The notes: generated by a model from the sequence alone, not told the origin. 64,000 nucleotides of DNA from Microcaecilia unicolor (GCF_901765095.1 NC_044034.1:62498339-62562338); one strand, 5' to 3'. Positions 18,985 through 57,480 are shown, counted from the stretch's first letter. Made by a program: numbers and translations.

Positions 18985-20612
18985 CTAACTAAGGCCCAGA
19001 TGATCAAAAGCCCTGCGCTGTTCCAAACAGCGCCCTAAAAATAGCGCCGGGACAGCGCAGGGCTTTTCTGCATCGATGATCAAAGATAATGCATACAAAT
19101 CTAAGCAGCGCTATTATCTTTGATTATCATGTTGACGTGCGGGAGAATTGCGCTCGAGCATGCGCTCAGCACAATCCTCCCGCACTTCTTTGACAAGTCT
19201 GGGCTGTCAAAAGCCCAAAACTGTCAGTGGCCTGCCGATCCCCCAACAAAGAGGCCACCGCCGCCGGCCAAACCGACTCCCACCCTCCCACCCAGCGATG
19301 GGGGGGGGGGCTGGAGGTCCAGTGGACCTCCGGTCTCCCCGACGACCCCCCCCATGTTCACGGAGGGCTGGAGATCCGGTGGTTCTCCAGCCCCCCCCAC
19401 GAACCCCCAGAGGACTTGGTTGCCGGCTTTAGAGAAACGCTGCCCTACCCTCCCATCTGCGACGGGGGGGGGGGGGGGGGGCTGGAGGATCGGTGGGTCT
19501 CCAGCCCCCCAAACCCCCAGAAATCGTTGTGATCCACCGGACCTCCAGCCCACCCCAACTCCTCCCCCCCCCGGCGTTCTCCACAAATCCCTGGTGGTCC
19601 ATGGTGACACTTAACCCACCCTCCTCCCTCCCTCCCGGCCCCCCTACCTTTGTTGGAGGAGGGACGCAGCCTGCATGCCTCCCTCCTCTTCCTTTCGACG
19701 CTCAGCCCCGCCCATTGCATCCTGGGATGTGCTGGGAGGGGCTACATACCATATAAGGGAGCGATTCCCTTACATGGTATGTAGCCCCCGCCCAGCGCAT
19801 CCCAGGATGCAATGGGCGGGGCTGGGCGCCGCCATTTTGAAGCGGCGTCGAAAGGAAGAGGAGGGAGGCATGCAGGCTGCGTCCCTCCTCCAACAAAAGG
19901 TAGGGGGGCCGGGAGGGAGGAGGGTGGGGTTACGTGTCATCACGGACCACCAGGGATTTGTTGAGAACGCGGGGGGGGGGAGGAGTTGGGGTGGACCTCC
20001 AGCCCCACCCCCCTTGTTGGTAGATTACAGCCCTTGGCCGGAGGTGGCCACAAGGATTTCTTGGGGTTTGGGGGGCTGGAGGCCCACCGAACGTCCAGCC
20101 CCCCCCCCCCCCGGCGCTGGTGGGAGGGTGGGACAACGCTTGGCCGGAGGCGACCACGAAGATTTCGTGGGGGGGGGGGGGGTTCAGGGGAGGGTCGGAT
20201 CGTTTGGGGGTGGGGGGGACCGGAGGTCCACCGGACCTCCTGTCCCGTGTGCTGTTGCCTTGGGGGGGAACGGGGGCCTGCCAGCATGCAACTGCATGCT
20301 GGACAGGGCTCACCATTCCTCCCCAATGATCCGCAAAACCTAACGCCAGCTTGGAGCTGGCGTTGATTTTGCTGCGGCCAGCGACCCAATCTTTGGCGCG
20401 CTGGTCGCTGATCATTGGGGATGAATGCGTTAAGCGCCAATTAGCATGCATTTGCAAGCTAATTGCGCTAGAAGCCCTGTTTAGCATGCATTTGCATGCT
20501 ATTTGCGCTGAGAGCCCTCGAGGGCTCTGATTATGGGTCGGCTGCAAACTCTGGTTCTAGTATGGCGTTAACAGCCTCTAGCGCCAGAGTTTGCTTTTGA
20601 TCATGAGGGCCT
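18985..20612. repeat. GC-rich long imperfect palindrome, an inverted duplication of about 1.6 kb centred near 19770, with a central ~55 bp-arm hairpin and termini 'CT(A/T)AGGCCC..ATGATCAAAAG'
   Basis: Segment 19560-19690 is the reverse complement of 19840-19980, for example 'ggcgttctccacaaatccctggtggtccatggtgacac' against 'gtgtcatcacggaccaccagggatttgttgagaacgc'. The central hairpin is 'ccccgcccattgcatcctgggatg..ggctacataccat ataagggagcgattccctta catggtatgtagcccccgcccagcgcatcccaggatgcaatgggcgggg'. The termini 'ctaaggcccagatgatcaaaag' at 18989 and 'cttttgatcatgagggcctaag' at 20594 are inverted. Repeated palindromic units such as 'ctggaggtccaccggacctccag' and long G and C homopolymers occur throughout. 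Confidence 0.65.
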
Positions 20613-21061
20613 AAGTGCTCATAATTTCAAGTGCATGTCCTGTGTAGCTCTGTGTGCACTGCACTGACCACACTAGGGGGTCATCAAGGCTTCCCCTTTC
20701 TCTATTATCTGTAGTTCATTGTTAGGAGGTTCTATTAAATTAGTCTTTCAGAAAGGCTGGCTGGAGTTAAAGATCAAACAGTTTAGGCAGGCCATCCTGC
20801 CTGCTTTGTGCATGCAAAGTCAGTGAAAATCAGGTAGTTGTGGATCAAAAACACCTCTGCTGCCAAGAATCTCTTTTGTTTAATGAACTCCTGTCAGTTC
20901 CCCCCCCCCCCCCACCCGGACACTTTCAGTCCCGCCTTTTACTTTAATTGCTTGCGGTCACAAATCCACCTGACCGAGAAGAAGGATTAACATATTCCCT
21001 AAGTGTCGGGATAAGCATAAAGGAATCCTGTGCCAAAGGAATGGATCCTCAGGAGCTTAGT

Positions 21062-21360
21062 CAGGATCGGGAGGCGGGGCTGGTGGTTGGGAGGCAGGGA
21101 TAGTGCTGGGCAGAGTTGTACGGTCTGTGCCAGAGCCGGTGGTGGGCAGCGGGACTGGTGGTTGGGAGGCGGGGATAGTGCTGGACAGACTTGTACGGTC
21201 TGTACCAGAGCCGGTGGTTGGGAGGCAGGGCGATGGTTGGGAGGTGAGGATAGTGCTGGGTAGACTTACACGGTCTGTGCCAGAGCCGGTGGTTGGGAGG
21301 AGGGGCAGGTGGTTGGGAGGCGGGGATAGTGCTGGGCAGACTTATACGGTCTGAGCCCTG
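21062..21360. repeat. Tandem repeat (minisatellite) with a period of about 77 bp and about 4 copies
   Basis: Unit 'ggtggttgggaggcggggatagtgctgggcagacttgtacggtctgtgccagagccggt' is repeated four times with minor variants. Confidence 0.8.
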
Positions 21361-21739
21361 AAGAGCACAGGTACAAATCAAAGTAGGGTATACACAAAAA
21401 GCAGCAAATATGAGTTATCTTGTTGGGCAGACTGGATGGACTGTGCAGGTCTTTTTCTGCCGTCATCTACTATGTTACTATGTAACAGCAATGATGCCTT
21501 AACTGAAAAGGTGAATAAATAAATGTATAGTTATGTTGATGTAAATATGCTGGGGGGGGGGGTCGTTTTGTTTTTAATTCTTCAACAGGCATTTTTCAGT
21601 GGACGATGTTCTTCTGCCACACGGTGATCGTGATCTACAGTTTAATTGCCCTGAAGAGGGGGAGGGGGAAGAGACTGCTGTGCTCCAGAGCTGGAAAAAA
21701 AGATGGGGAAGAAAAGCTAATAATCATAAATACCTGGCT

Positions 21740-22190
21740 GGCTTGCCTTTGAATGGCAGTGCAGGAGGCGCACAAACTTGCTCCAGCTGATCAGCTCCGT
21801 TCCACTTCACTTTATTTGAAGTCGACTCACTCGCATCAGGCTCACCTCTTTTCCCTTCCCGCTCAGGAAATACGTCATCAGAAGGAAGGCGGGACATTGG
21901 GCGGGAAGGGAAAAGCTGGGTGGGTGAGCCATCGCTGCCTGCAACTCTGACTGTCGGGGTTTGGGGCGTCGCTGCAAGCCTGCAGTCTGTCGGGTCCGGG
22001 GAGAGGCGGGAGCTGACAGCGAGCTCAGCGGTGAGTAGGCAGGGCATCGGACCGGAGGCAGAAGTGGAGCGGCCGAGCGGGAGCGGGATCAAATCATGAT
22101 GTGGCGGTGCAGTCTAAGCGGGGGTTGGTCGGAGAGGCAGAGTTGAGGCGCGGCGCGCGGGGCCCCCTTAAGCGCGGGGCCCTATGCAGC
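21740..22190. promoter_or_regulatory. CpG-rich promoter and 5'-exon-like segment internal to the hAT-like element; function unknown
   Basis: CpG density is high across 21740-22190, in contrast to AT-rich surroundings. The segment holds 'gaaatacgtcatcagaaggaaggcgggacattgggcggg' and a donor-like 'cagcggtgagtag'. It sits immediately inside the right TIR. Confidence 0.3.
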
Positions 22191-25894: not shown

Positions 25895-25993
25895 TGGTTT
25901 ACTTCTACCAAAGATGGTGGTAGAAGATCATGGCTTGGAGAGGACAGATATTGGGAACCTTGGCAGCGGCATTTACTTTGGTGATTCCATCAG
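25895..25993 (+). CDS. PARP4: PARP4 exon, catalytic domain
   Basis: Acceptor 'cctcatcctcacag|TGG' and donor 'ATCAG|gtctgg'. Encodes '(R)GLLLPKMVVEDHGLERTDIGNLGSGIYFGDSI'. It continues ...GILSR from the previous exon. This matches my recollection of vertebrate PARP4 'GLLLPKVVEDRGVQRTDVGNLGSGIYFSDS'. Confidence 0.85.
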
Positions 25994-30082: not shown

Positions 30083-33000
30083 TTATGTCAGCCACTCTGC
30101 CAGAATTACCTGCTTGGATACAATAATGGCCCTAGAGACAAAGGATGCAAATCCACACGGCATCGGGTGTCCCAACTTAGGCTGTCCAAACAAGAGTGCA
30201 GGGTCGTAATGCCAACCTGTCTTCCACAAGCTAGATATGTGAAGCATGATTGCTTTCCAAAAACTTGCAATGCCTTTACAGGACCAGAACATATGTCCTA
30301 GGGTCACACCACTGGCTCCACACTTCAGACTTGACCCCTAAGGAGAAAGTCCCATATGAAATGCCGTTCGAGGAGATATATATAAACGGAGGACAAATTT
30401 GTATTGTAACTTCTGATAAACGCTGAATCGAAAGTATATGCGATTTAATTTGCGCTGCAGTGATGTTTACTTGTAAATCTCTTTGCCACAAAGACAACAA
30501 TCTTGAATAATCCAACTCAGGTATTGAGTCCCGTGTATGCCTGTGATGAAAAGAAAGCAACACCTTATGCTGCACTTCTAAAGAGAAAGCAGATGAAAGT
30601 TCTTCTTGTATTTCCTCTGTCATTGACTCCCAAGGCAGCGATGATACATAATGCCACAGTTGAGCATAATGGAACTCATCAAAATGTGGCAAGGCAAATT
30701 CTACTTGGAGACCTTGAAAAGGTTTTATACGATCTTCTTTGGAAACCACCTGTAGTAAGTACACAATACCTTGCTTCTTCCATCTGCGGAAGACAGAATA
30801 CAGTTGTCCTGGTGCAAAGGCCGCATTATCACAAATTGCCAAATATGGCGTTACCTTTGCAGAAAAACGATGTAATTGGCAAATCCACCTCCAAACTGCT
30901 TTTGCGGACTTCATAATCAAAGAATGTTTTAACACATTTGGTATGGACTCACCATTTGTGTGCAAATAACTACTGAAATGAACTCCCAGGGAGAGTTGTA
31001 ACTCCATAGTTGTATTACAGTAATCTTGAGTGGCTCTAAACCAGTCATTAATATGCTCATGCCACTGGCAATAGTAAGAAATCTTATGCTAAGTAATCCC
31101 AACCCCCCGTACTCCACCGGTATATATAAGGTTGATATGGGAAGACGAGCTTTCCTACCTTGCCAGAGAAAACACTGAACCAATGTGTTCAGTTTCCTTT
31201 CATCCCCCCATTTCAAATACAAAGGTAGGATCTGAAAGACATAAAGCCATCTGGGGACAATAAACATATTGAATAATGCTATACGTCCTAACAATGAAAT
31301 AGGTAAGGAGCCCCATGCATGCAACCTCAATTTTGTCTCCTTTAATAACCACTGAATATTTTTTTCATATAACAAATTTAAATCTGCTGGAATGTGTACT
31401 CCAAAATATTTAATTGAGCCCTGTGCCCAGTTAAGGGGAAACTGTTCTCTCCAATTTATTTGCCTTCCTGTTAATACAGGAAGAGCAAAGGATTTATTTA
31501 AGTTCATCTTGAAACCAGAAATGTGCCCAAATTGCCTAATACTTGTAAGCAGCAACTCTAGTGATTGGGGTGGATTTGTCAATATCAGTAATAAATCGTC
31601 AGCATAAGCCAGTCTTTGATACATTGATCTGCAAGAGAGATGCCCTCTATCCCCTTTGTAAGCGAGAGCATCCGGAGCAATGGCTCTAATGATATCACAA
31701 AAAATAAAGGAGAGAGGGGACATCCTTGCCTAGTGCCTCTTTCTATAATAAATTCTTTTTCTTTAATACCATTAATTAACACGCATGCCTGAGGATGATA
31801 GTAGAGAGCTTGTATCGTTTGTAAAAACCAACCAGTAATTCCCATAGCAGCCATAGTCCTATCCCACCTGGTCAAAGGCCTTTTCTGCATCCAAGCTAAC
31901 CACCAAGAATGGAACACCTTTATCTCTGCGAGATGCCATTGCCAGTAGTAAACGTCTGACATTATGCGCCGCTTGATGGTGTCATACAAACCCCACCTGC
32001 TCAGATCCTATCAATTTTGGTAGACACTGTGCCAATCTTTCAGCCAATATTTTAGCTAACAACTTAATGTCTACATTTAGAAGCAATATCGGCCTATAGG
32101 AGTCTGCCTGCTCTGATGATTTACCCGACTTTGGTATTAAAGTTATCAACGCGGTATTAGCATAAATGGGAAATTTACCTTGTTATATCACCTCCTCATA
32201 ATATTCTAGCACGGAGGCCAGAACCGCTGGGGGTAAGGTCTTATAATAATCTCCTGTGAATCCATCAGGACCTGGAGCAGAATGAAATTTTAGCGACTTT
32301 ACCGCTTTTTGCAACTCAGTTAACGATAGGGGTGCGTTCAAGCAGTCCAGATCTGCTAAGGACAGTGTAGGTAAACCTGAGCGCTTTAAATAATCCAATA
32401 GATTTCGCTCATGAGGTATCAACTCTGCTTTATATAGGGAGGAGAAATATTCTGTGAATAGCTCCCTATTTCCCCTTGATCACTTGTAAGCACTCCACGC
32501 TTGTCCCGTAGGGCTGCCACGGTCCGAGGCCATCCCCAATTCTTAATTAGTCGTGCAAGCATTCGTCCCGGTCTATTACCAAACCTTTGCAATCTATACT
32601 TATAATAAAGAGATGACCTATGGGCATATTTTCAAAGCACTTTGGGAGGCTGTTCCATAGGTTTCTATGGAACTTTGGGAGGCTAAGTGCTTTGAAAATG
32701 AGCTTGCTAGTCTCTATTTTGTAAAATAGAGTATTGAGAGCTATTTGAGTGGCTTTTAAGTTCTCCAGAGTAGCCTTTGTAGGCCTTTGCACATGGGCCC
32801 GTTTAGCCCTTCGTAACTGTTTCTAAATGCAAAATACCTGCTGCTCTACGCTTTTTCTTCATACTACAAAATGCAATGCTGTCTCCCCGTATCACCACCT
32901 TCGATGCAGACCAAAATAATAGTGGCTGATTTTGAGCTTGTTCACCATTATTAGCCGCATACTAAGCCCACCTTATATTTATGTATTTCTGAAATTGAGG

Positions 33001-33704
33001 GTCTGTGTACAAGTAGGCTGGCTATTTCCTCCCTTTTCCACCCGGACTATCAGCAGGTATTTCTAGGTCCACCCACACTAGAGCATGGTCTGAAATTTCT
33101 TCGGGCCCTATGGTCTCTGCTAATGTCAGAGGAAACAAGGAACATTCCATCAAAATATAATCCAAACAGGCTTGTGTTCCATGAGCCCTTGACTGGTGAT
33201 TGTAATCTCGCTCACCCGGTTGCAGTGCCCTCCATACATCAACTAAGTTAAGAGATTTTGAGAGTATAGAGAACTCTCTGGTCCGTTGCCCTGAATAATG
33301 CAAAGAATTCGGGTTGGAACAGTCATAAACCGGGTCCGAAACTAAGTTAAAATCACCCAGTACCATCAACTTTGAGTTCTTATGTGCAAGCAACATCCAA
33401 CCAGCGATTTAAAAAAGACTGGGTCATAACAATTGAGACCATACAACACCACTAGCAGAAAGTCTATGCCTTGCAGCCATACATGTAAAATTATGTAATT
33501 CCCCTGTGTCCCTTTTGTCACCAAAGTAGCTTTATACGATAGCCCCTTTCGAAACAAAACTGCCATTCCCCCTTTCTGCCCCTGTGAGGCAGCCGCGTAA
33601 ATCTCCCCTACCCAGGATCTCTGCAACTTAGCGTGTTCTAAATCCGTGAGACGTGTCTCTTGCAAACAAGCTATATCTGATTTATGGCGTTTTAATGCTG
33701 ACAA
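30083..33704 (-). mobile_element. L1-like LINE copy, degraded, with ORF2 split by frameshifts into EN, RT and C-terminal pieces
   Basis: Five minus-strand ORFs cover the domains. 33366-33704 has the endonuclease N-terminus 'SALKRHKSDIACLQETRL'. 31585-31989 has RT 'GTRQGCPLSPLFFVISLEPL'. 30929-31723 has RT 'YADDLLLIL'. 30276-31007 holds the C-terminal domain. 30083-30307 holds the 'LGHMFWSCKGIASFW' Cys motif. The layout is collinear with the L1 at 11536-13668. Confidence 0.8.
30083..33704 (-). pseudogene. L1 ORF2 pseudogene (EN-RT-C domains, frameshifted)
   Basis: Frames switch between successive ORFs at about 33366-33396, 32183-33022, 31585-31989 and 30929-31007. Stop codons lie between the segments. 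Confidence 0.7.
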
Positions 33705-35071
33705 AATTTTAGAGTGCTTTATCGGGGAACTAATGCCCCCTACATTCCAAGATATTACTCATGTAGGCAAACGCTATTTAAAGAAACTAACATTGGTAAA
33801 GAGATATCCCCTATGCACATTCCTATCCCCTCCATTAAAACCTGTAAACATACATTCAGCAACATATTCATACAGATTCAATGCAATTTTGACCCTTCTT
33901 GCCCAGGTTAACAGTACCCTCAACCCTTCTATTTCCCGAGAACTCCTCCCCCTTCCCATGTAACCATTGTAAATCCAGTACAGGTCCCCTCATCCTTCCT
34001 ACCTTCCCTCCCCATTCCCCCCCAACCCTAAACTTAACCCAATCCATCTACCCAGGGAACAGACCTGGGGATGGAAGCAAAGATCACATTAAGTGCTAGG
34101 GACCCCAACCTCCAAATGCAACTGCTTATAGGCTATGTCACCATAATACACTATGTTAAAGCAACTAGTAATATATTTACTCCTGTACCACACCAACAAA
34201 TGCAACATGGATTAATCCGCATCAATCAATCTGTTGTTCAATAATGCTGATTTTGCCTCTGTTACAGTCTTGAAAGCTTGCCATTGACCTTGAATTGAAA
34301 CCCTTAATTGTGCTGGATATTGTAAAGCAAAATGAATTCTTTTATAAGAGCTGAGCAGAGAGGATGAAACTGTTGACGCTGCTTTGTGCGGGGGAGAAAT
34401 CTTGTAAAATCATCAGTATGTTGCGCCCGTCGTGCATCAGTGAGTCTCTCTGTAATTTAAACCCTCGAAGAATTTCAACTTTATGTCTGTAATTCAATAT
34501 TTTTGCCATAATTACTCTTGGTCAGTTCTGATCCTCCGATCTGCGCCCGACGCAATGTGCCCTTTCCACCACTACCGGGCCCATTGTGTCTGTAAGGGCC
34601 AATTCCTTAGCCAGCCAAGTCGCTAGGTTCCATTCAGGGAGTTTTTCTGTTAACCCCACTTTCTCCGAGGACAAGCAGGCTGCTTGTTCTCACTGATGGG
34701 TGACGTCCACGGCAGCCCCTCCAATCGGAATCTTCACTAGCAAAGTCCTTTGCTAGCCCTCGCGCGCCCGCGCGGCCGTCTTCCCGCCCGAAACCGGCTC
34801 GAGCCGGCCAGTCTTCTTTCGTCCGCACTTGGTACGGTTGTGTTTTTCGCCGTGTCGAGCCCCGGAGAGTCGACCTCGCGCGTCCTTTGTCTAATCGACG
34901 TGTTTTTTATTCGGAAAATATTAGAATTCGTTCGGGAAGTGCTCCGGAAGCCCCCTTGGGTTTCGTTTTGCCCCTTCCCGTATTTTCAGTCTTTGCCCCG
35001 GTAAGTTTTCTTTCGTCGTCGGGGTAGGCCTCTTTTCGGCCTCGGTCGAGATTTTTCTCCCTCAAAGTTTT

Positions 35072-37370
35072 TTGGTGCTCATTTTCGTCATTTTGGATTT
35101 TGATTTCGCCGGCGTGATTTTTCCGCCCATGACATCGAAGCCTTCCAGCGGCTTCAAGAAGTGCACCCAGTGCGCCCGGGTTATCTCGCTCACTGACAGG
35201 CACGCGTCGTGTCTTCAGTGTCTGGGGGCCGAGCACCGCCCTCAGGCCTGTAGTCTGTGTTCCCTTTTGCAAAGGCGGACTCAGGTAGCGAGATTGGCCC
35301 AGTGGAACGTTTTGTTCTCGGGCTCTTCGTCGGCATCGGCACCGGGGGTATCGTGTACATCGACGTCTTCAGCGTCCAGAGCTTCATCCTCGGCCGCCAG
35401 TGCATCGAGTGCATCGAGGCATCGGCCCTCTGCATCGGCGCCGAGACATCGGATAGCTGCATCGACGTCGGTGGTACCGGGACCTCGTCTGCTGATGTCG
35501 TCGGACGGTGGTGCATCGTCAGGTGAGGGCTGTCCATTCCCCTGCTGGTGGCGGTGAGCCTTCGGGTGGGTCTCCCCCTACCCTGAGGGCTCCTGCGGTA
35601 CAGCCCCCCCGAGACCGACCTCCTTCGGCCTCGGCCCCGAGGAAGCGACGGCTGGATTCTACATCCTCCTCGTCGGTACCGGGAAGCTCCGGTGACATGC
35701 TTCGTTCCAAGAAGTCGAAGAAGCATCGTCACCGGTCCCCTTCCCGTGTCGGTACCGAGAGCTCTGGGTCGCCGAGGGAGTCGGCACCCACCAGGCATCG
35801 GCACCGAGAGGACCGCTCACCCTCTGTTCAGGAGGTGTCGATGCGCTCCACTCTGGACAGCCCGGAACAGCCTCCACGCCCGGAACAGGTTCTGACGTCG
35901 ACGCCTGCATCAACCTCCATGCCTTTCTCTGCAGCCGCTCTGAACGAGAGCCTCCGGGCCGTTCTCCCAGAGATTCTGGGAGAGCTGTTGCGCCCTACCC
36001 CTCCGGTACCGGCGGTGCTTGCGCCACCGGTACCGTCGAGCGTGGCGCCGGCTGGCCCATCGCCCGAGGTGAGGTCTCCGGCGTTGGTGCCGCGTGCGGT
36101 GCCGGCTGCCGTCGCCTCCCAGGAGGGCTCCCCGACTACGTCGGCGGAGGGAGCTTCGCCGATGCGGGCGAGGGAGTCTACCTCTCGACGCCCCCATCGT
36201 GGACGTGGCTCCACGGAGTCGAGTCGGGCACGGTTGCAGACACAGGTCCGTGAACTTGTGTCTGACACCGAGGGTGAGGCCTCGTGGGAAGAGGAAGAAG
36301 ACCCCAGATATTTCTCTGACGAGGAGTCTGAGGGTCTTCCTTCCGATCCTACTCCCTCTCCTGAAAGACAGCTTTCTCCTCCTGAGAGTCTGTCTTTCGC
36401 TTCCTTTGTCCGGGAGATGTCTACGGCCATCCCCTTCCCGGTGGTTGTGGAGGACGAGCCCAGGGCTGAAATGTTTGAGCTCCTGGACTATCCTTCTCCA
36501 CCTAAGGAAGCGTCCACTGTTCCCTTGCACCATGTCCTGAAAAAGACATTGCTTGCGAACTGGACAAAACCATTAACTAACCCCCACATCCCCAAGAAGA
36601 TCGAGTCCCAGTACCGGATCCATGGGGACCCAGATCTGATGCGCACTCAGTTGCCTCATGATTCTGGAGTTGTGGATCTGGCCCTAAAGAAGGCTAAGAG
36701 TTCTAGGGAGCATGCTTCGGCGCCCCCGGGCAAGGACTCTAGAACCTTAGACTCCTTTGGGAGGAAGGCCTACCATTCTTCTATGCTCGTGGCCAAAATT
36801 CAGTCTTACCAGCTCTACACGAGCATACACATGCGGAACAATGTGCGGCAGTTGGCGGGCTTGGTTGATGCTCTCCCCCCTGAGCAAGCCAAACCTTTTC
36901 AGGAGGTGGTCAGGCAGCTGAAGGCGTGCAGAAAATTCCTGGCCAGAGGGGTGTATGACACCTTTGATGTTGCGTCCAGGGCCGCTGCTCAAGGTGTGGT
37001 GATGCGCAGGCTCTCATGGCTGCGTGCCTCCGACCTGGAGAATAGAATCCAGCAGCGGATTGCGGACTCGCCTTGCCGTGCAGATAACATTTTTGGAGAG
37101 AAAGTCGAGCAGGTGGTAGAGCAGCTCCACCAGCGGGACACCGCATTCGACAAGTTCTCCCGCCGGCAGCCTTCAGCTTCTACCTCTACAGGTAGAAGAT
37201 TTTTCGGGGGAAGGAAGACTGTTCCCTACTCTTCTGGCAAGCGTAGGTACAATCCTCCTTCTCGACAGCCTGCGGCCCAGGCTAAGCCCCAGCGCGCTCG
37301 CTCTCGTCAGCAGCGTGCGACTCAGCAAGGCCCCTCGGCTCCCCAGCAAAAGCAAGGGACGAGCTTTTGA
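35072..37370 (+). CDS. DIRS ORF1, gag-like, with an N-terminal CxxC...CxxC zinc-finger-like segment and a Ser/Pro/Arg-rich region
   Basis: ORF 35508-37370 of 620 aa is preceded in a neighbouring frame by 35072-35557 'CTQCARVISLTDRHASCLQCLGAEHRPQACSLCS'. Either a frameshift or alternative start lies near 35510, so the exact start is uncertain. The frame is continuous to a stop at 37370, which overlaps the ORF2 start as is usual for DIRS. Confidence 0.6.
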
Positions 37371-39192
37371 CTGGCTCCAGCAGAGCATAGCCGACATCCA
37401 AGTGTCAGTGCCGGGCGACCTGCCAGTCGGAGGGAGGTTGAAAGCTTTTCACCAAAGGTGGCCTCTCATAACCTCCGATCAGTGGGTTCTGCAAATAGTC
37501 CGGCAAGGATACACCCTCAATTTGGCCTCAAAACCTCCAAATTGTCCACCGGGAGCTCAGTCTTACAGCTTCCAGCACAAGCAGGTACTTGCAGAGGAAC
37601 TCTCCGCCCTTCTCAGCGCCAATGCGGTCGAGCCCGTGCCATCCGGGCAAGAAGGGCTGGGATTCTATTCCAGGTACTTCCTTGTGGAAAAGAAAACAGG
37701 GGGGATGCGTCCCATCCTAGACCTAAGGGCCCTGAACAAATATCTGGTCAAAGAAAAGTTCAGGATGCTTTCCCTGGGCACCCTACTTCCCATGATTCAG
37801 GAAAACGATTGGCTATGCTCTCTGGACTTGAAGGATGCCTACACACACATCCCGATACTGCCAGCTCACAGACAGTATCTGCGATTTCAGCTGGGCACAT
37901 GTCACTTCCAGTACTGTGTGCTACCCTTTGGGCTCGCCTCTGCGCCCAGGGTGTTCACAAAGTGCTTGGCTGTAGTAGCAGCAGCACTTCGAAGGCTGGG
38001 AGTGCACGTGTTCCCATATCTCGACGATTGGCTGGTGAAGAACACGTCCGAGGCAGGAGCCCTGCAGTCCATGCAGATGACTATTCGCCTCCTGGAGCTA
38101 CTGGGGTTTGTGATAAATTACCCAAAGTCCCATCTTCTCCCAGCGCAGAGACTCGAATTCATAGGAGCTCTGCTGGATTCTCGGACGGCTCGCGCCTATC
38201 TCCCAGAGGCGAGAGCCAACAACTTGTTGTCCCTCGTCTCTCGGGTGCGAGCGTCCCAGCAGATCACAGCTCGGCAGATGTTGAGATTGCTGGGCCACAT
38301 GGCCTCCACAGTTCATGTGACTCCCATGGCCCGCCTTCACATGAGGTCTGCTCAATGGACCCTAGCTTCCCAGTGGTTTCAGGCTGCTGGGGATCTAGAA
38401 GACGTGATCCACCTGTCCACGAGTTTTCTCGAATCCCTGTATTGGTGGACGATTTGGTCCAATTTGACTCTGGGACGTCCTTTCCAAATTCCTCAGCCAC
38501 AAAAAGTGCTGACCACGGATGCGTCTCTCCTGGGATGGGGAGCTCATGTCGATGGGCTTCACACCCAAGGAAGCTGGTCCCTCCAGGAACGCGATCTACA
38601 GATCAATCTTCTGGAGTTGCGAGCGATCTGGAACGCTCTGAAGGCTTTCAGAGATCGGCTGTCCCACCAAATTATCCAAATTCAGACAGACAACCAGGTT
38701 GCCATGTACTACGTCAACAAGCAGGGGGGCACTGGATCTCGCCCCCTGTGTCAGGAAGCCGTCAGCATGTGGCTCTGGGCTCGCCGTCACGGCATGGTGC
38801 TCCAAGCCACATATCTGGCAGGCGTAAACAACAGTCTGGCCGACAGGTTGAGCAGGATTATGCAACCTCACGAGTGGTCGCTCAACTCCCGAGTGGTGCG
38901 CCAGATCTTCCAAGCGTGGGGCACCCCCTTGGTGGATCTCTTCGCATCTCGAGCCAACCACAAAGTCCCTCAGTTCTGTTCCAGGCTTCAGGCCCACGGC
39001 AGACTGGCATCGGATGCCTTCCTCCTGGATTGGGGGGAGGGCCTGCTGTATGCTTATCCTCCCATACCTCTGGTGGGGAAGACTTTGTTGAAACTCAAGC
39101 AAGACCGAGGCACCATGATTCTGATTGCTCCTTTTTGGCCGCGTCAGATCTGGTTCCCTCTTCTTCTGGAGTTATCCTCCGAAGAACCGTGA
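37315..39192 (+). CDS. DIRS ORF2, reverse transcriptase, RNase H and the post-RNH domain; 625 aa, intact
   Basis: RT motifs include 'YFLVEKKTGGMRPILDLRALNKYL', 'LDLKDAYTHIPI' and 'FPYLDDWLV'. The RNase H has 'LTTDASLLGWGAHVDG' and 'IQTDNQVAMYYVNKQGGTGSRPL'. The C-terminal segment 'LLYAYPPIPLVGKTLLKLKQDRGTMILIAPFWPRQIWFPLL' is typical of DIRS. Confidence 0.9.
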   Translation: MRLSKAPRLPSKSKGRAFDWLQQSIADIQVSVPGDLPVGGRLKAFHQRWPLITSDQWVLQIVRQGYTLNLASKPPNCPPGAQSYSFQHKQVLAEELSALLSANAVEPVPSGQEGLGFYSRYFLVEKKTGGMRPILDLRALNKYLVKEKFRMLSLGTLLPMIQENDWLCSLDLKDAYTHIPILPAHRQYLRFQLGTCHFQYCVLPFGLASAPRVFTKCLAVVAAALRRLGVHVFPYLDDWLVKNTSEAGALQSMQMTIRLLELLGFVINYPKSHLLPAQRLEFIGALLDSRTARAYLPEARANNLLSLVSRVRASQQITARQMLRLLGHMASTVHVTPMARLHMRSAQWTLASQWFQAAGDLEDVIHLSTSFLESLYWWTIWSNLTLGRPFQIPQPQKVLTTDASLLGWGAHVDGLHTQGSWSLQERDLQINLLELRAIWNALKAFRDRLSHQIIQIQTDNQVAMYYVNKQGGTGSRPLCQEAVSMWLWARRHGMVLQATYLAGVNNSLADRLSRIMQPHEWSLNSRVVRQIFQAWGTPLVDLFASRANHKVPQFCSRLQAHGRLASDAFLLDWGEGLLYAYPPIPLVGKTLLKLKQDRGTMILIAPFWPRQIWFPLLLELSSEEP

Positions 39193-40331
39193 AGATTGGA
39201 GTGTTTTCCGACCCTCATCACGCAGGACGAAGGGGCTCTTCTGCATCCCAGCCTCCGGTCCCTGGCTCTCACGGCTTGGATGTTGAGAGCGTAGACTTTG
39301 CCTCTTTGGGTCTGTCAGAGGGTGTCTCCCGCATCTTGCTTGCTTCCAGGAAAGATTCCACTAAGAGGAGTTACTTCTTTCTGTGGAGGAGGTTTGCCGT
39401 CTGGTGTGACAGCAAGGCCCTAGATCCTCGCTCTTGTCCTACACAGACCCTGCTTGAATACCTTCTGCACTTGTCTGAGTCTGGCCTCAAGACCAACTCT
39501 GTAAGGGTTCACCTTAGTGCAATCAGTGCATACCATTACCATGTGGAAGGTAAGCCGATCTCAGGACAGCCTTTAGTTGTTCGCTTCATGAGAGGTTTGC
39601 TTTTGTCAAAGCCCCCTGTCAAGCCTCCTACAGTGTCATGGGATCTCAATGTCGTTCTCACCCAGCTGATGAAACCTCCTTTTGAGCCACTGAACTCCTG
39701 CCATCTGAAGTACTTGACCTGGAAGGTCATTTTCTTGGTGGCAGTTACTTCAGCTCGTAGAGTCAGTGAGCTTCAGGCCCTGGTAGCCCAGGCCCCTTAC
39801 ACCAAATTTCATCATAACAGAGTAGTCCTCCGCACTCACCCTAAGTTCCTGCCAAAGGTCGTGTCGGAGTTCCATCTGAACCAGTCAATTGTCTTGCCAA
39901 CATTCTTTCCCCGTCCTCATTCCTGCCCTGCTGAACGTCAGCTGCACACATTGGACTGCAAGAGAGCATTGGCCTTCTATCTGGAGCGGACACAGCCCAA
40001 CAGACAGTCCGCCCAATTGTTTGTTTCTTTTGATCCCAATAGGAGGGGAGTGGCTGTGGGGAAACGCACCATATCCAATTGGCTAGCAGATTGCATTTCC
40101 TTCACTTACGCCCAGGCGGGGCTGGCTCTTGAGGGTCATGTCACGGCTCATAATGTTAGAGCCATGGCTGCGTCGGTAGCCCACTTGAAGTCAGCCTCCA
40201 TTGAAGAAATTTGCAAAGCTGCGACGTGGTCATCTGTCCACACATTCACATCTCATTACTGCCTGCAGCAGGATACCCGACGCGACAGTCGGTTCGGGCA
40301 GTCAGTTCTTCAGAACCTGTTTGGGCTTTAG
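39193..40331 (+). CDS. DIRS ORF3, tyrosine recombinase (YR), the C-terminal part of the long 37458-40331 frame
   Basis: The YR region has 'SKRSYFFLWRRFAVWCD', 'VTSARRVSELQAL' (the catalytic R box), 'GHVTAHNVRAMAAS' (the H-x-x-R box) and 'ATWSSVHTFTSHY' (the catalytic Tyr region). The exact YR start inside the overlapping frame is uncertain. Confidence 0.8.
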
Positions 40332-40861
40332 GATCCAACTCCACCCCCCGAGGGCCCTGTTTGTTCTGTTCCAGGCTGCACTCTCAGTTAGTTGGTAAAT
40401 TTTTTTAGGTCAATCTCAGTTATGTCCTCGCCGTTGCGAGGCCCAATTGACCATGGTTGTTGTTTTGAGTGAGCCTGGGGGCTAGGGATACCCCATCAGT
40501 GAGAACAAGCAGCCTGCTTGTCCTCGGAGAAAGCGAATGCTACATACCTGTAGAAGGTATTCTCCGAGGACAGCAGGCTGATTGTTCTCACAAACCCGCC
40601 CGCCTCCCCTTTGGAGTTGTGTCTTCCCTTCTCTTGTCTTGCTACATATGAAACTGGCCGGCTCGAGCCGGTTTCGGGCGGGAAGACGGCCGCGCATGCG
40701 CGCGAGGGCTAGCAAAGGACTTTGCTAGTGAAGATTCCGATTGGAGGGGCTGCCGTGGACGTCACCCATCAGTGAGAACAATCAGCCTGCTGTCCTCGGA
40801 GAATACCTTCTATAGGTATGTAGCATTCGGTATACGCAAGTTGTTCCTGTGGGAGCGGTTT

Positions 40862-41341
40862 TCAAGATCTTCCAGTTTGTTCATTTGTTCCTTTAGCTGC
40901 TATGTCTGGGCCGTACACGTGGGAGTCATCCTCCAGAGCCGAAACCCTGGCTTCTAAGTCCCCCGTGCGGGTCCCCAAACCGTCCAGCATCGTTTGAAAC
41001 AAATCCAGTTTTTGATCCATCATTTCCCACTTCTGCTCCCAGGCTTTCTCTACTGCTGATGTTAGCTGCAGGAGCTGGGTGTCAGTAAAGGCCGGTGGCG
41101 GCAAGGGAGGATCCTTCGCCATGTTGGCCTCCACACTGCCAGGCTTACTTTTTTCTTTAACAGCCTTATGCGCATCCCAGCAGGCAATTTGTTCAAATGT
41201 TTGTCCATAAAGAAATGTCCCACCACCATCCAGCACCAAACAAAGATATAGTGCAGCAGTTAAGATGATATGGATGCGAGGGCCCCAGAGCTTCAGCAAG
41301 ATGGTGCTGTTCAGCTCATAGCAGCACGTGATGTTCTGCAT
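40862..41341 (-). repeat. L1 ORF1-like coiled-coil fragment, possibly the 5' part of an L1 copy
   Basis: The ORF has 'QLLQLTSAVEKAWEQKWEMMDQKLDLFQTMLDGLGTRTGDLEARVSALEDD', a heptad-rich coiled coil similar in style to the region upstream of 'RRNNLR' in the 10086-10560 fragment. The RRNN motif itself is not intact here. Confidence 0.35.
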
Positions 41342-43956: not shown

Positions 43957-44140
43957 TACCTGCATCAAATACTCAAAACCCAGTGAAACAGATGGCTCCC
44001 GGCTCTTAGTGGTATGTAGCGTGGCTCTTGGGAAATGCATGGAGCTGTACGAGACAGATTTTTCATTAGCCAAAGCCCCAGCAGGATATCAGAGTGTACA
44101 TGGGGTTCGGAAAGCACCAGGCAGCCTCTCGGACTTTGAG
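43957..44140 (+). CDS. PARP4: PARP4 exon, catalytic domain
   Basis: Acceptor 'ttattatgcaaag|TACC' and donor 'TTTGAG|gtatga'. Encodes 'STCIKYSKPSETDGSRLLVVCSVALGKCMELYETDFSLAKAPAGYQSVHGVRKAPGSLSDFE', which is highly similar to my recollection of human PARP4 'STSIKYSHPGETDGTRLLLICDVALGKCMDLHEKDFSLTEAPPGYDSVHGV'. Confidence 0.85.
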
Positions 44141-54189: not shown

Positions 54190-56820
54190 ATTGAGGTCTG
54201 AGGGGGCAGTATTGTTATCCATCCCTAATTTGGCTAGGGTACGTTTTGAGGAGGCTCGGAAGAGTTCCTTATGTTTGGCAAGACCTGTGATATACAATCG
54301 GCTGTTCCATAGCGTCCCACAGATCAATCCAGAGACTTGTGGGTTGCGTCCCTCTACCAGCAGGTTGGAATTGGTTCGTCCGATAGTAGACTCGTTTCTG
54401 GAATCTCCTTGCAAATCTCCCGCCAAGGTGTGGGCAGTTCGTCACACCCTCCTCAACTTACAACAACTGGGAGCTGTCCAGCCTGTACTCCCAGCAGAAA
54501 GAGGGTGCGGTCGATACTCCATTTATTTTGTGATGCCAAAAAAGGGCGGTTCTTGGCGACCTGTCCTAGATCTCAAGTGCTTCAACAGGTCCTTACGGGT
54601 TCGGCATTTCCGCATGGAAACCCTCCGCTCGGTGATCGCAGCGGTACAGCCAGGAGAGTTTTTGACATCTCTCGATCTCAAAGAGGCCTATTTACACATT
54701 CCAATTTGGCCTCTCCACAGTCGTTTTCTTCGCTTTGCAGTGCTCTGTCGTCATTTTCAATTCAAAGCGATGCCCTTCGGCCTAGCCACAGCACTTTGGA
54801 CTTTTGGAAAAGTCCTTTCTGAGATAGGCCGCCACTTCGACAAGGACCTTGGGAAAAGTGGCGGCCTATCTCAGAAAGGAAGGGATTCAAGTCCATCCTT
54901 ATCTAGATGACTGGCTTGTGTGGGCGTCTTCTTTCGAGGAGATTCAATGGGCAACCAACAGAGTGGTCAGGTTGCTTCAGTTGCTTGGTTGCGTGATCAA
55001 CTTCCCAAAGTGCAGCCTTACGCCTTCCCAGACGCTGGAATACTTGGGAGTGTACTTCGATACCCGAACAGAGATAGTTTCTCTTCCTTCAGCTTGAGCG
55101 CAGCGGTTGCAGGGTCAGTTGCGAGCTCTGTTCCAAACTCCGAACCCGCAGACTTGGGACTATGTACAAGTTCTGGGTTCCATGGCCTTCACCTTGGACG
55201 TCGTAAAGTGGGCCAGAGCTCACATGCGCCCCCTGCAGTGGCACCTTCTGAGCCATTGGTCTCCTCTCTGGGAGGATTACGAGGTTCAGGTGCCATATTC
55301 GACCCGTCTGCACACAATCATGCACTTGTGGTTCATTCAAAAGAATCTGGTGTCGGGCATTCTTCTGCAAACCCCAGAATGGAAGATCGTGACCACAGAT
55401 GCGTTGCTGTCTGTTTGGGGGGCTCATTGCCTCCAACAGACGGCCTAGGGCATTTGGACCTCGACGGAGGCGTCTTGGTCCATCAACCGCTTGGAGTTGT
55501 AGGCGATTCGTCTGGCCCTTCGGGAGTTACTGTCTCTTCTGCGTGGTTGCCCAGTTCGAGTTCTCTCGGATAATGTGACGGCGGTCGCCTACGTAAACCG
55601 TCGGGGACACCGGGTGTGCACCACTAGCGTGCGATGCAGCCCTGATTTGCCATTGGGCAGAGACTCATCTCTCTCTCTTGACGGCGGCTCATATAGCGGG
55701 GTAGAGAATATGCAAGCGGACTTTCTCAGTCGCCACCAGTTGGAGCCGGGGGAGTGGACACTCTTCCCTCTGGCCTTAGATCAGATAGCTTCACGTTGGG
55801 GGATGCCGGTGATGGACTTAATGGCCACCACATTCAATGCAAAGTTTCCCCGTTTCTTCAGCAGAGGAAGATAGCTGGGCTCAGAAGGCATCCATGCTCT
55901 TCTACAACCTTAGCCCAGGGGCCTGCTCTATGCCTTTTCCTCTGGCCTATAGTGGGCAGGTTACTGACTCACATTGCCAGTCATTCCGGTCAAGTGATCC
56001 TGGTGGCCCCAGATTGGCCCAAACGTCCCTGGTAAGTTGATATGGTCAGGCTCCTGTTCGATCGTCCGCTCCGGCTCCAGGCGCAGGATGGTCTCTTGCT
56101 GCAGGGACCAGTCATGATGGAGGATCCCTCCCCCTTTGGTCTTACGGCCTGGCCCTTGAAAGGGCGAAGTTGAGAAGGAAAGGATATCTGGATGTGGTTA
56201 TCGCTACGAAGCTTCAGGCTCGGAAAAGATCCACCTCGATAGCTTATGCTAGGGTGTGGCATACTTTCGATTCATTGTGTGCAAGTTCGGGATTGTCAAC
56301 GGCTTTGGCTTCGGTATCGGTTATCCTCGTATTTCTTCAGGATGGTGTACAGAAATCATTCTCATTGAGTTCTCTTAAGGTGCAGGTGGCAGCTCTGGCA
56401 TGCTTTAGAGGCCAACTTCAGGGGGTGTCGATCGCCTCCCACCCGGATGTGGTTCGTTTTTTGAGGGGCGTAAATTGGTTGCGTCCTCCGCATGTGCCAG
56501 TTCTGCCATCCTGGAACCTTAATCTAGTTCTCAAAGCGCTTCAGCGTCCTCCTTTCGAACCCTTATGGGGATTACGGTTAAGGATTTTACCTTGAAGGCA
56601 ATTTTCCTAGTAGCCGTTACTTCAGCTCGGAGAATTTCAGAGTTGCAGGCTCTTTCTTGCAGAGACCCCTTCCTGCGTTTTACAGAGGCAGGAGTATCGA
56701 TTAGGACAGTTCTTTCGTTTTTGCCCAAGGTGGTTTCTTGTTTCCATTTGGGGCAGTCTCTGTATTTGCCGACTTTTCGCCGGGAAGACGTGGGATGTAC
56801 CCAAGTAGTCCTCAAGTAGG
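54190..56820 (+). mobile_element. DIRS-like retrotransposon copy 2. It is 5' truncated with no gag, frameshifted, and its YR is truncated at 56819.
   Basis: ORFs 54191-54910 ('YSIYFVMPKKGGSWRPVLDLKCFNRSLRV...LDLKEAYLHIPIW'), 54849-55097 ('HPYLDDWLVWA'), 55107-55448 and 55575-55874 (RNase H 'VTTDALLSVWGAH', 'AVAYVNRRG'), 55754-56035 ('VILVAPDWPKRPW') and 56170-56819 (YR N-terminus and middle, 'VTSARRISELQAL') lie in successive frames. Together they are collinear with the intact copy at 37315-40331. Confidence 0.8.
54190..56820 (+). pseudogene. DIRS RT, RNase H and YR pseudogene segments (copy 2)
   Basis: Multiple frameshifts separate the domain pieces and the 3' end of the YR is missing on this strand. 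Confidence 0.7.
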
Positions 56821-56829
56821 GCGGGACAC

Positions 56830-57480
56830 CCCCAACCCGGCAGAAATCACCGACTAGCCAAACACCGCATCCTGCCGAGCTGCCACATCCACCCGATAAT
56901 GATTAGTGAACGTATGGACCGAAGCCCATGTAGCGGCTCTGCAGATATCTTCCAGAGAAACCAAACAGGACTCTGCATAGAAGGAAACCTGAGCTCGCGT
57001 AGAATGAGCACGAATTTGCGCAGGGGCTCGCTTGCCCAATGCCATGTAGGCCAGTGATGGCCTCCCTCACCCAATGGGCTATGGTGACCTCGGAAGCCAT
57101 ATGACCCTTCTTACTGCCTCAAAAAAGGACGATGGTCAGAGAGACAAAAGTTATTCGTCACCTCTAATCCAGAGCCCCCCCACCCAGATTTACTGTCTGC
57201 AGTTTTGTTTTGGTTGGTTAGTTTTTTCGGATTTCGTTGTTCTGAATGTTCCTTCATTTGATTAAATAAGAAAAACAAATAAATTTGGAAGTGGTGGAAG
57301 TATGTTGGGCATTTGGTCTGACAATGTCAGGAGAGTTTTCTATTGTTTCCATTCCACTGCTTTGGTATCGTTCATACTGAGGTTTACTTGGTTGCACAGG
57401 TCCACATATAGCAAATCTCTGAGGTTCTCTCTGTCTCCACCTGCTGGTAGAGGGACACAACCCACAAGTCTCTGGATTGA
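56830..57480 (-). mobile_element. Inverted DIRS fragment abutting copy 2 tail to tail. It holds the YR C-terminal catalytic segment and a piece of the region just upstream of the RT.
   Basis: ORF 56854-57045(-) 'IRAHSTRAQVSFYAESCLVSLEDICRAATWASVHTFTNHY' is homologous to the copy-1 segment 'HNVRAMAASVAHLKSASIEEICKAATWSSVHTFTSHY'. The reverse complement of 57400-57480 matches 54330-54400 'cccacagatcaatccagagacttgtgggttgcgtccctctaccagcaggt'. Confidence 0.6.

Follow-up and report, generated by a model that had tools for sequence, protein, structure and literature searches.

What is the element that lies within an intron of the PARP4 gene in a stretch of 64,000 nucleotides from Microcaecilia unicolor (GCF_901765095.1 NC_044034.1:62498339-62562338; hereafter, the window), and is it still able to move by itself? 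A first-pass annotation described it as a DIRS-like retrotransposon, recently inserted, apparently intact and potentially active. In our analysis, positions 34659-40829 on the plus strand are one copy of a DIRS1-like (order DIRS) tyrosine-recombinase (YR) retrotransposon, located inside the PARP4 intron; the earlier identification of a DIRS-like YR element on the strand of the gene has therefore held, as each of the defining DIRS1 features that was tested is present, except that the evidence on an end trinucleotide shared with the target is mixed. Taken as a whole, the locus is very probably best read as a DIRS1-like copy that was inserted without target-site duplication, that retains a complete set of cis-acting parts and that carries two coding lesions, so that it is likely non-autonomous.

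The element is 6,171 bp long and differs in composition from its background (56% versus 44% GC). The span first given for it, 34655-40828, contained the right element and missed its ends by 4 and 1 bases, respectively. The following terminal and internal structures delimit it:

34659-34812, plus strand: left terminus, consisting of a divergent inverted terminal repeat (ITR) at about 34659-34683, which starts with CTT, and a conserved ITR at about 34684-34812
40492-40591, plus strand: internal complementary region (ICR), with the junction trinucleotide AAG
40653-40829, plus strand: right terminus, consisting of the right ITR (40653-40805) and a right extension (40806-40829)

Inverted repeats of about 150 bp with few mismatches had been noted before, and their alignment bears this out: the pair formed by 34661-34812 and 40653-40803 extends over 152 nt with 97.4% identity, as found with a repeat finder, blastn and direct alignment. 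Within the conserved core there are only two mismatches, which are adjacent, per about 128 nt (34768-34769, CC versus AT). The outer 25 nt or so also differ between the two ITRs (CT/TA, an indel of 1 nt and C/A), and each version fits its own half of the ICR, which indicates that these differences are built-in features of the family and not mutations. As regards the two halves of the ICR, the left one (40492-40533) pairs perfectly with the start of the element (34659-34700, 42 of 42 positions) and the right one (40534-40591) with its right end (40772-40829) at 57 of 58 positions, the exception being a transition. The 24 nt of the right extension pair with the ICR alone. As the reverse complement of the ICR reads the right end followed by the left start, it corresponds to a circle junction. 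A region of this kind, juxtaposing right-end and left-start sequence, had been placed at 40488-40600, and it is now refined to the 100 bp of 40492-40591.

The insertion site can be reconstructed with similar detail. The element interrupts a long interspersed nuclear element (LINE) that runs antisense to PARP4, and the features around it are:

25895-25993, plus strand: upstream PARP4 exon (catalytic domain), context of the insertion
43957-44140, plus strand: downstream PARP4 exon (catalytic domain), context of the insertion
40830-41341, minus strand: 5′ part of the ORF1-like frame of the LINE, which continues over the excised junction
33366-34658, minus strand: remainder of the LINE, with the 3′ part of the ORF1-like frame at 34658-34267 and the start of ORF2 at 33704-33366

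The PARP4 exons that had been located at 25895 and 43957, on the same strand as the element, are confirmed. Both have AG/GT boundaries on the plus strand and jointly encode GLLLPKMVVEDHGLERTDIGNLGSGIYFGDSISTCIKYSKPSETDGSRLLVVCSVALGKCMELYETDFSLAKAPAGYQSVHGVRKAPGSLSDFE, which matches residues 452-544 of human PARP4 with an E value of 2e-36 (versus 8e-6 for PARP2). They enclose an intron of 17,963 nt, in which the element lies on the strand of the gene and splits the minus-strand LINE in an ORF1-like, coiled-coil region, a label that we take from the motif RNNLRIxGLxE. When 34659-40829 is excised in silico, …NKLEDLENRSHRNNLRI is joined to LGLTEKLPEWNLATW… in one frame, with the junction …NRSHRNNLRI/LGLTEKLPEW…, where the codon at the junction is split 1+2 and no base is duplicated or lost; the reconstructed empty site reads …AACCCCA/GTATACGC…. 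Because the excision restores the frame of the LINE, the boundaries are base-exact and there is neither target-site duplication nor deletion, as expected for tyrosine-recombinase integration. Further along the minus strand, the start of the AP-endonuclease open reading frame (ORF) of the LINE is found at 33704-33366 (Pfam Exo_endo_phos, 5.2e-7), and its position there is the second basis of the ORF1 label. At the ends of the insert, the left-end CTT is complementary to the AAG of the junction; the right end closes with …TCG, next to which comes GTA, and no CTT occurs in the target, CCA/GTA.

As for the coding capacity of the element, the three ORFs expected from the first-pass annotation (gag-like, reverse transcriptase with RNase H, and recombinase) are all present, and it is their integrity that did not stand: gag contains a frame break and pol a premature TGA at 39190. 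The gag region comprises two parts:

35129-35557, plus strand: gag N-terminal part, with the ATG and a zinc-knuckle-like motif, frame 2
35496-37370, plus strand: gag body, LAP2alpha-like, frame 0, out of frame with the N-terminal part

The gag-like ORF at 35508-37370 encodes 620 aa and belongs to a body that is open in frame 0 throughout 35496-37370 (624 codons, stop-free; frames are given as position modulo 3). The Pfam LAP2alpha match of this body (1.1e-4) is under the curated cut-off, and its phmmer matches to the gag regions of DIRS proteins reach 1e-12 to 1e-20 (database proteins P0207, P0256, P0263, P0269, P0273 and others); LAP2alpha, for its part, was co-opted from a DIRS gag (PMC4495291). 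The sole plausible start for gag is the ATG at 35129, which is followed by MTSKPSSGFKKCTQCARVISLTDRHASCLQCLGAEHRPQACSLC… in frame 2 until a stop at 35555. This N-terminal part contains a CxxC..HxxC zinc-knuckle-like motif, which has 78 database matches at E<1e-3, nearly all of them at protein N-termini, and a Ser-rich linker. Upstream of 35496, frame 0 is closed, so that its overlap with frame 2 is limited to 35496-35554. In ten homologues (nine database proteins and a related locus, L002), the zinc knuckle and the gag body are found in one ORF; for instance, the gag of L002 is continuous over 852 aa from its ATG, and P0207, the only match in a search with an in-silico fused gag that was swamped by the Ser/Pro/Arg-rich linker, is a single ORF of 771 aa with both gag parts. 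Since the two parts of gag occupy different frames in this copy (2 and 0, respectively) and a single ORF in homologues, the sequence indicates that this copy has a +1/-2 frame break within 35496-35554, in the low-complexity, Ser-rich linker. We considered that the break could be bridged by splicing of an intron, as there is a donor-like CAG/GTGAGG at 35522/35523, and deemed it unlikely because in the homologues gag forms one ORF in unspliced sequence, and because an intron would not persist in a retroelement. Separately, P0208, a database protein of 566 aa, combines the DIRS gag zinc-knuckle motif (residues 9-73) with a Pfam match to the N-terminus of CENP-T (1.4e-18), and may represent either an exaptation or a fused gene model.

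The second lesion is found near the end of pol, whose parts are:

37366-39192, plus strand: pol, with reverse transcriptase (RT), RNase H and MT-like domains, frame 1
39193-39294, plus strand: severed C-terminal tail of pol, RLECFPTLITQDEGALLHPSLRSLALTAWMLRA followed by a stop

The pol ORF (37315-39192, 625 aa) is in frame 1, which is open from 37120. It matches Pfam RVT_1 (2.7e-19) and, more weakly, RT_RNaseH (2.5e-4), and retrieves 1,510 homologues when the cut-off is set at E<=1e-10, those at the top, from Chrysemys and Pleurodeles, being only 48% identical. In an alignment of 15 pol sequences, D171 and D174 of RT motif A and Y235-D237-D238 of the YLDD box are kept, and D402, E434, D459 and D510 of RNase H are kept and invariant. 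The MT-like domain, for which no Pfam model exists, was assigned from the invariant motifs DLFA, DAF, Y..PP and WPRQ.W, which follow RNase H and are common to 14 DIRS pol homologues. The ORF ends with …LLLELSSEEP and the TGA at 39190-39192, and the same frame goes on as RLECFPTLITQDEGALLHPSLRSLALTAWMLRA up to a stop at 39292. This continuation contains the motif LP..P.L.TQ..G...HP.L..L.LTAW.L, present in all 13 aligned homologues and with nine nearly invariant columns, so that 33 conserved C-terminal codons are cut off by the TGA. Measured from the gag stop, pol has 607 aa in this copy versus 629-731 aa in 31 other elements, the shortest of the 32. These comparisons indicate that the TGA at 39190 is a premature nonsense change in a conserved region, and it should be recent, because the tail beyond it has not decayed. 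Among the related loci, gag and pol may also be arranged differently: in one from Chrysemys picta (L003, CM062323.1, 4809-8103), they are fused in a single frame of 1,034 aa that requires no frameshift, the YR is frameshifted and the locus is annotated as an ‘uncharacterized protein’ of the host.

The third ORF presents no interruption:

37371-40331, plus strand: YR ORF, frame 0, with the YR domain at about 39300-40328

As delimited by ORF prediction, it covers 37458-40331 (957 aa, stop-free), and its frame, the same as that of gag, is open throughout 37371-40331. The YR domain is at the C-terminal end of this long ORF, about 640 codons of which overlap pol. In an alignment of 22 sequences, R189 (ARRVSE), K221 (LPK), H319-x-x-R322, W345 and Y355 are conserved, and the profile built from this alignment finds Cre at about 1e-10, placing HxxR/W/Y on H289/R292/W315/Y324 of Cre. 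The ORF also has a Pfam match to the SAM-like integrase N-domain. An AlphaFold model of the YR (pLDDT 77) retrieves Cre/Tre with Foldseek (E 5e-9, TM 0.55-0.65), as well as XerA and the lambda integrase. There are 86 YR homologues, the best 57% identical (Latimeria); homologues of pol and YR come from turtles, newts, the coelacanth, lizards and frogs. The domain searches proposed earlier thus detected RVT_1, an RNase H-like match and a SAM-like integrase N-domain, besides the LAP2alpha-like gag, and the refutation that had been proposed, by damage to the catalytic cores, did not come about, with the RT YLDD, the RNase H D-E-D-D and the YR R..K..HxxR..W..Y all present.

According to codon statistics, the overlap between YR and pol is clearly selected. 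Over 606 codons the YR frame contains no stops, versus 17.8±3.3 expected (minimum 7) from 20,000 synonymous-codon shuffles of pol. The YR part of about 600 aa that lies over pol (37371-39190) is rich in Ser, Pro, Gly and Arg, without a Pfam domain; it has the look of an overprinted sequence and is probably disordered. The last in-frame ATG before the YR domain, at about 38550, would give a protein of about 593 aa, and annotated homologues have 595-656 aa.

Of the properties that an autonomous copy should have, an uninterrupted gag and a full-length pol are thus lacking, and the gag and pol lesions make it most likely that the copy is no longer autonomous. Consequently, to call it apparently intact and potentially active was an overstatement, even if the gag frame break and the near-terminal nonsense codon of pol are both outside the catalytic cores. 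The strongest alternative, which we consider quite improbable, is that the copy is fully intact and autonomous, the gag break and the pol TGA being sequencing or assembly errors or else tolerated; in a variant of this explanation, gag could be made from an internal AUG without the zinc knuckle, and a pol shortened by 33 residues could still work. It would agree with the three stop-free frames (957 codons for YR, 607 for pol and 624 for the gag body), with the retention of all catalytic residues and with the near identity of the repeats, and the perfect in-frame conservation of the tail past the TGA means that the change is either very recent or artefactual. It is opposed by the ten homologous gag ORFs that join zinc knuckle and body, by the pol tail, which is found in 13 of 13 homologues with nine nearly invariant positions and whose loss leaves the shortest pol of 32, and by the lower likelihood that two independent lesions are both errors.

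The insertion can be called recent only on a scale of a few million years. According to the Cappello model (PMC7192593), replication copies the left repeat from its right counterpart and restores the outer ends on the ICR, so the members of each repeat pair should be identical at insertion. About 3 of 228 positions differ between them in this copy (1.3%), two in the ITR core and one in the 100 nt of the ICR/terminus pairs. With an assumed rate of 0.5-2e-9 substitutions per site per year, this would correspond to an insertion age of roughly 3-13 million years (My), with a wide Poisson error. A young age is also weakly favoured by the observed-to-expected CpG ratio, which is 0.71 in the element and 0.39 elsewhere in the window.

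A replication pathway can be proposed for this copy by analogy with the Cappello model and with the experimental work on DIRS-1 of Dictyostelium (PMC7192593). The RT/RNase H of the element would have reverse-transcribed a sub-genomic transcript, whose missing termini would have been rebuilt on the ICR, where right and left ends are set side by side in a circle junction. The resulting circular double-stranded DNA would then have been inserted by the Cre-like tyrosine recombinase, without target-site duplication, landing in the ORF1 region of the antisense LINE in the 18-kb PARP4 intron, in an event that is probably a few million years old. Both the frame break of gag and the nonsense codon of pol would have arisen after insertion or in the immediate parent. 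In Dictyostelium, it has been shown that the ICR of DIRS-1 is essential and that its proteins act in trans (PMC7192593). As the cis parts of the present copy seem good enough, an intact relative could mobilise it in trans.

Several observations weigh against the interpretation that we favour, or against parts of it. Both lesions are of single-nucleotide scale and could be assembly errors. The age is calculated from three differences and an assumed rate, with the caveat that the model of identity at insertion is unproven in vertebrate elements, and the CpG ratio is a weak indicator of age, since a degraded second DIRS-like element in the window scores 0.68. The identity of the target as LINE ORF1 has no significant Pfam (E<=10) or PDB phmmer match behind it, and no further copy of this LINE was found in the window with which the empty site could be compared. 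Additionally, the model of 3-bp homology described in PMC3266345 is not supported for this insertion, as the target CCA/GTA lacks CTT. Finally, there is no second copy of the same DIRS family within the 64-kb window and no protein more than 57% identical in the databases searched.

The remaining explanations fare worse than that of an intact copy. We give practically no credit to the idea of a domesticated, DIRS-derived host gene or of an exonised part of PARP4. It has a precedent in the co-option of DIRS gag as LAP2alpha (PMC4495291), and the element does lie in sense within the gene, but the termini and ICR are complete, a LINE is interrupted and two ORFs have lesions; moreover, the PARP4 exons on either side encode adjoining residues of the human protein (452-544), so that the coding sequence does not require any part of the element. 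No sense AATAAA or ATTAAA was found within the element. That a member of another YR superfamily (Ngaro, PAT-like or VIPER), a Crypton or an LTR element has been misread as DIRS1-like can hardly be true either: all of the named YR groups encode a tyrosine recombinase, and Ngaro and PAT also share gag and RT/RNase H with this copy, but its inverted termini and the ICR complementary to both ends already refute the idea, Ngaro/PAT-like elements having split direct repeats instead of ITRs plus ICR (by repeat finder, only the latter were found here), Ngaro and VIPER lacking the MT-like domain that here follows RNase H and Ngaro usually lacking ORF overlaps (PMC3266345), Crypton lacking RT, and Pfam finding neither a protease nor a DDE integrase (rve) domain in the ORFs of the element.

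The DIRS1-like copy is, therefore, a further member of a well-known group that is common in amphibians, reptiles and fish. In Anolis, for instance, 775 DIRS sequences have been detected, in 42 families (PMC3266345), and several putatively functional copies have been described in Xenopus (PMC9210276); the earlier statement that, apart from a few lineages, intact YR retroelements are uncommon does not agree with this literature on non-mammalian vertebrates. The closest geometry is that of AcDIRS1 and AcDIRS2 of Anolis carolinensis (5.9-6.0 kb, versus 6.17 kb here), which were compared by their published geometry (Table 3, PMC3266345). These elements start with CTT/TTT and have AAG/AAA at the junction (CTT and AAG here); their divergent ITR measures 26 nt, the conserved ITR 136-140 nt and the right extension 26-28 nt (about 25, 129 and 24 nt here), and their ICRs are of 40-58 and 39-60 nt (42 + 58 here). 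AcDIRS2 shares the long overlap of YR and pol, and AcDIRS1 likewise has unlike ends (CTT, CAT). As the closest lizard proteins found are only 42-46% identical, the present element belongs to a different family from AcDIRS1/2. Piednoël et al. (2011, PMC3266345) list a long overlap between YR and pol for half of 28 elements. DIRS-1 of Dictyostelium discoideum shares ITRs with unlike outer ends, gag, an overlapping YR ORF, an RT/RH/MT ORF and the absence of target-site duplication; its ICR (33+55 nt, versus 42+58 here) also sets the complement of the left end beside that of the right end. By contrast, its sequence is very distant, it is 4.8 kb long and its ITRs are of about 300 bp. Xenopus elements of the DIRS-37_XT type (PMC9210276) resemble this one in having three ORFs, conserved ITRs and an ICR, with amplification waves from less than 3 to 16 My, and differ in that the YR is about 42% identical and in that here we have a single copy with two ORF lesions. 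With Cre/Tre of phage P1, its closest solved structures, the YR shares the two-domain fold and HxxR/W/Y, at 14-16% identity, and differs in forming the end of a much longer ORF.

A different question is how pol and YR are expressed, given the arrangement of the frames. The gag and YR ORFs are in one frame and are parted by a single stop, the TGA at 37368, with pol in the +1 frame. The feature involved is:

37365-37372, plus strand: gag stop UUU UGA C, candidate site of +1 frameshift or read-through, with a putative function

The related loci surveyed were 6 retrieved through their proteins and 80 obtained by a metagenome scan. Among the 63 loci with both ORFs, 56 have pol in +1 with respect to YR. 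In 32 loci, counting that of the window (28 clusters at >=60% pol identity), a long gag ORF ends at a stop and, in the same frame, the YR ORF is open from the very next codon; this set (L001, L002, L004, L006, L008-L056) includes loci from the starfish Patiria miniata and the lizard Pogona. By cluster (n=28), the stop is TGA-C in 17, TGA-T/G/A in 5, TAG-G in 4 and TAG-C in 2, with no TAA. The first in-frame ATG comes at a median of 66 codons after the stop, and up to 492, with 4,571 stop-free codons before it overall, a pattern compatible with the YR frame being reached through a leaky gag stop.

We know of no mechanism for the expression of pol and YR in DIRS elements. The +1 frameshift sites of prfB (which codes for RF2), CUU UGA C, and of antizyme, UCC UGA U, are known, as is the read-through of gag-UAG-pol in MuLV. 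The likeness to these systems lies in the stop context UUU UGA C, in pol being entered in +1 from GAC and in the YR ORF being in the zero frame: at this stop, tRNA-Phe could re-pair perfectly in +1, and GAC would then open the pol frame as …AFDWLQQ. In the Pogona locus (L006), the stop context is exactly CTT TGA C. The candidate site differs from them in that no consistent downstream structure was found. A downstream stimulatory RNA structure was sought by folding: the window gives a z of -1.2, the results are inconsistent in seven other loci and no conserved structure was found. A hairpin of -47 kcal/mol (z -5.9) does lie about 25 nt after the gag TGA in one metagenome locus (L036, 3526-3645), with none comparable in the others folded. 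Additionally, the codon before the gag stop is not slippery in most of the related loci.

It is possible, if somewhat unlikely, that YR is made as Gag-X-YR by read-through and Gag-Pol by a +1 shift at the same stop, an idea that we treat as a lead and not as a finding. If it is true, the arrangement of the frames suggests that one leaky stop would set the ratio of Gag, Gag-Pol and Gag-YR, and that about 2 kb would be read in two frames. The single-stop architecture was not found stated in the DIRS literature searched, which mentions only a ‘long ORF overlap’ and did not extend to older primary papers.

Other repeats and features were observed in the window. The interrupted LINE, on the minus strand, has RT fragments at 31723-30276 and occupies 30276-34658 and 40830-41341. 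Further LINE RT ORFs are found elsewhere, for instance at 13668-11536, as well as an ORF1-like fragment at 10173-10012. The degraded second DIRS-like element, with its CpG ratio of 0.68, belongs to another family and lies at 54410-57057 on the plus strand; its RT pieces, 37-41% identical to those of the first element, are in shifted frames, its YR pieces are at 56140-56777 and its YR C-terminal piece is inverted at 57057-56827. There is also a GC-rich block at 19001-22000 (55-62% GC), with ORFs overlapping on both strands (19120-20547), where the one ORF tested had no Pfam match.

A single insertion matters little by itself, as this copy has two lesions and many descriptions exist of complete DIRS1-like elements from amphibians, reptiles and fish. 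It is useful as a worked example, with exact boundaries, no target-site duplication and an empty site that can be reconstructed within a LINE, and as a high-quality template for a consensus of its family. It is also a possible marker of recent DIRS activity, and it represents a 6-kb insert, in sense, in an intron of PARP4. If the recoding idea were confirmed, it would explain how DIRS elements make three proteins from one leaky stop, and the known recoding events would be joined by a long region read in two frames and by a prfB-like site in a eukaryote.

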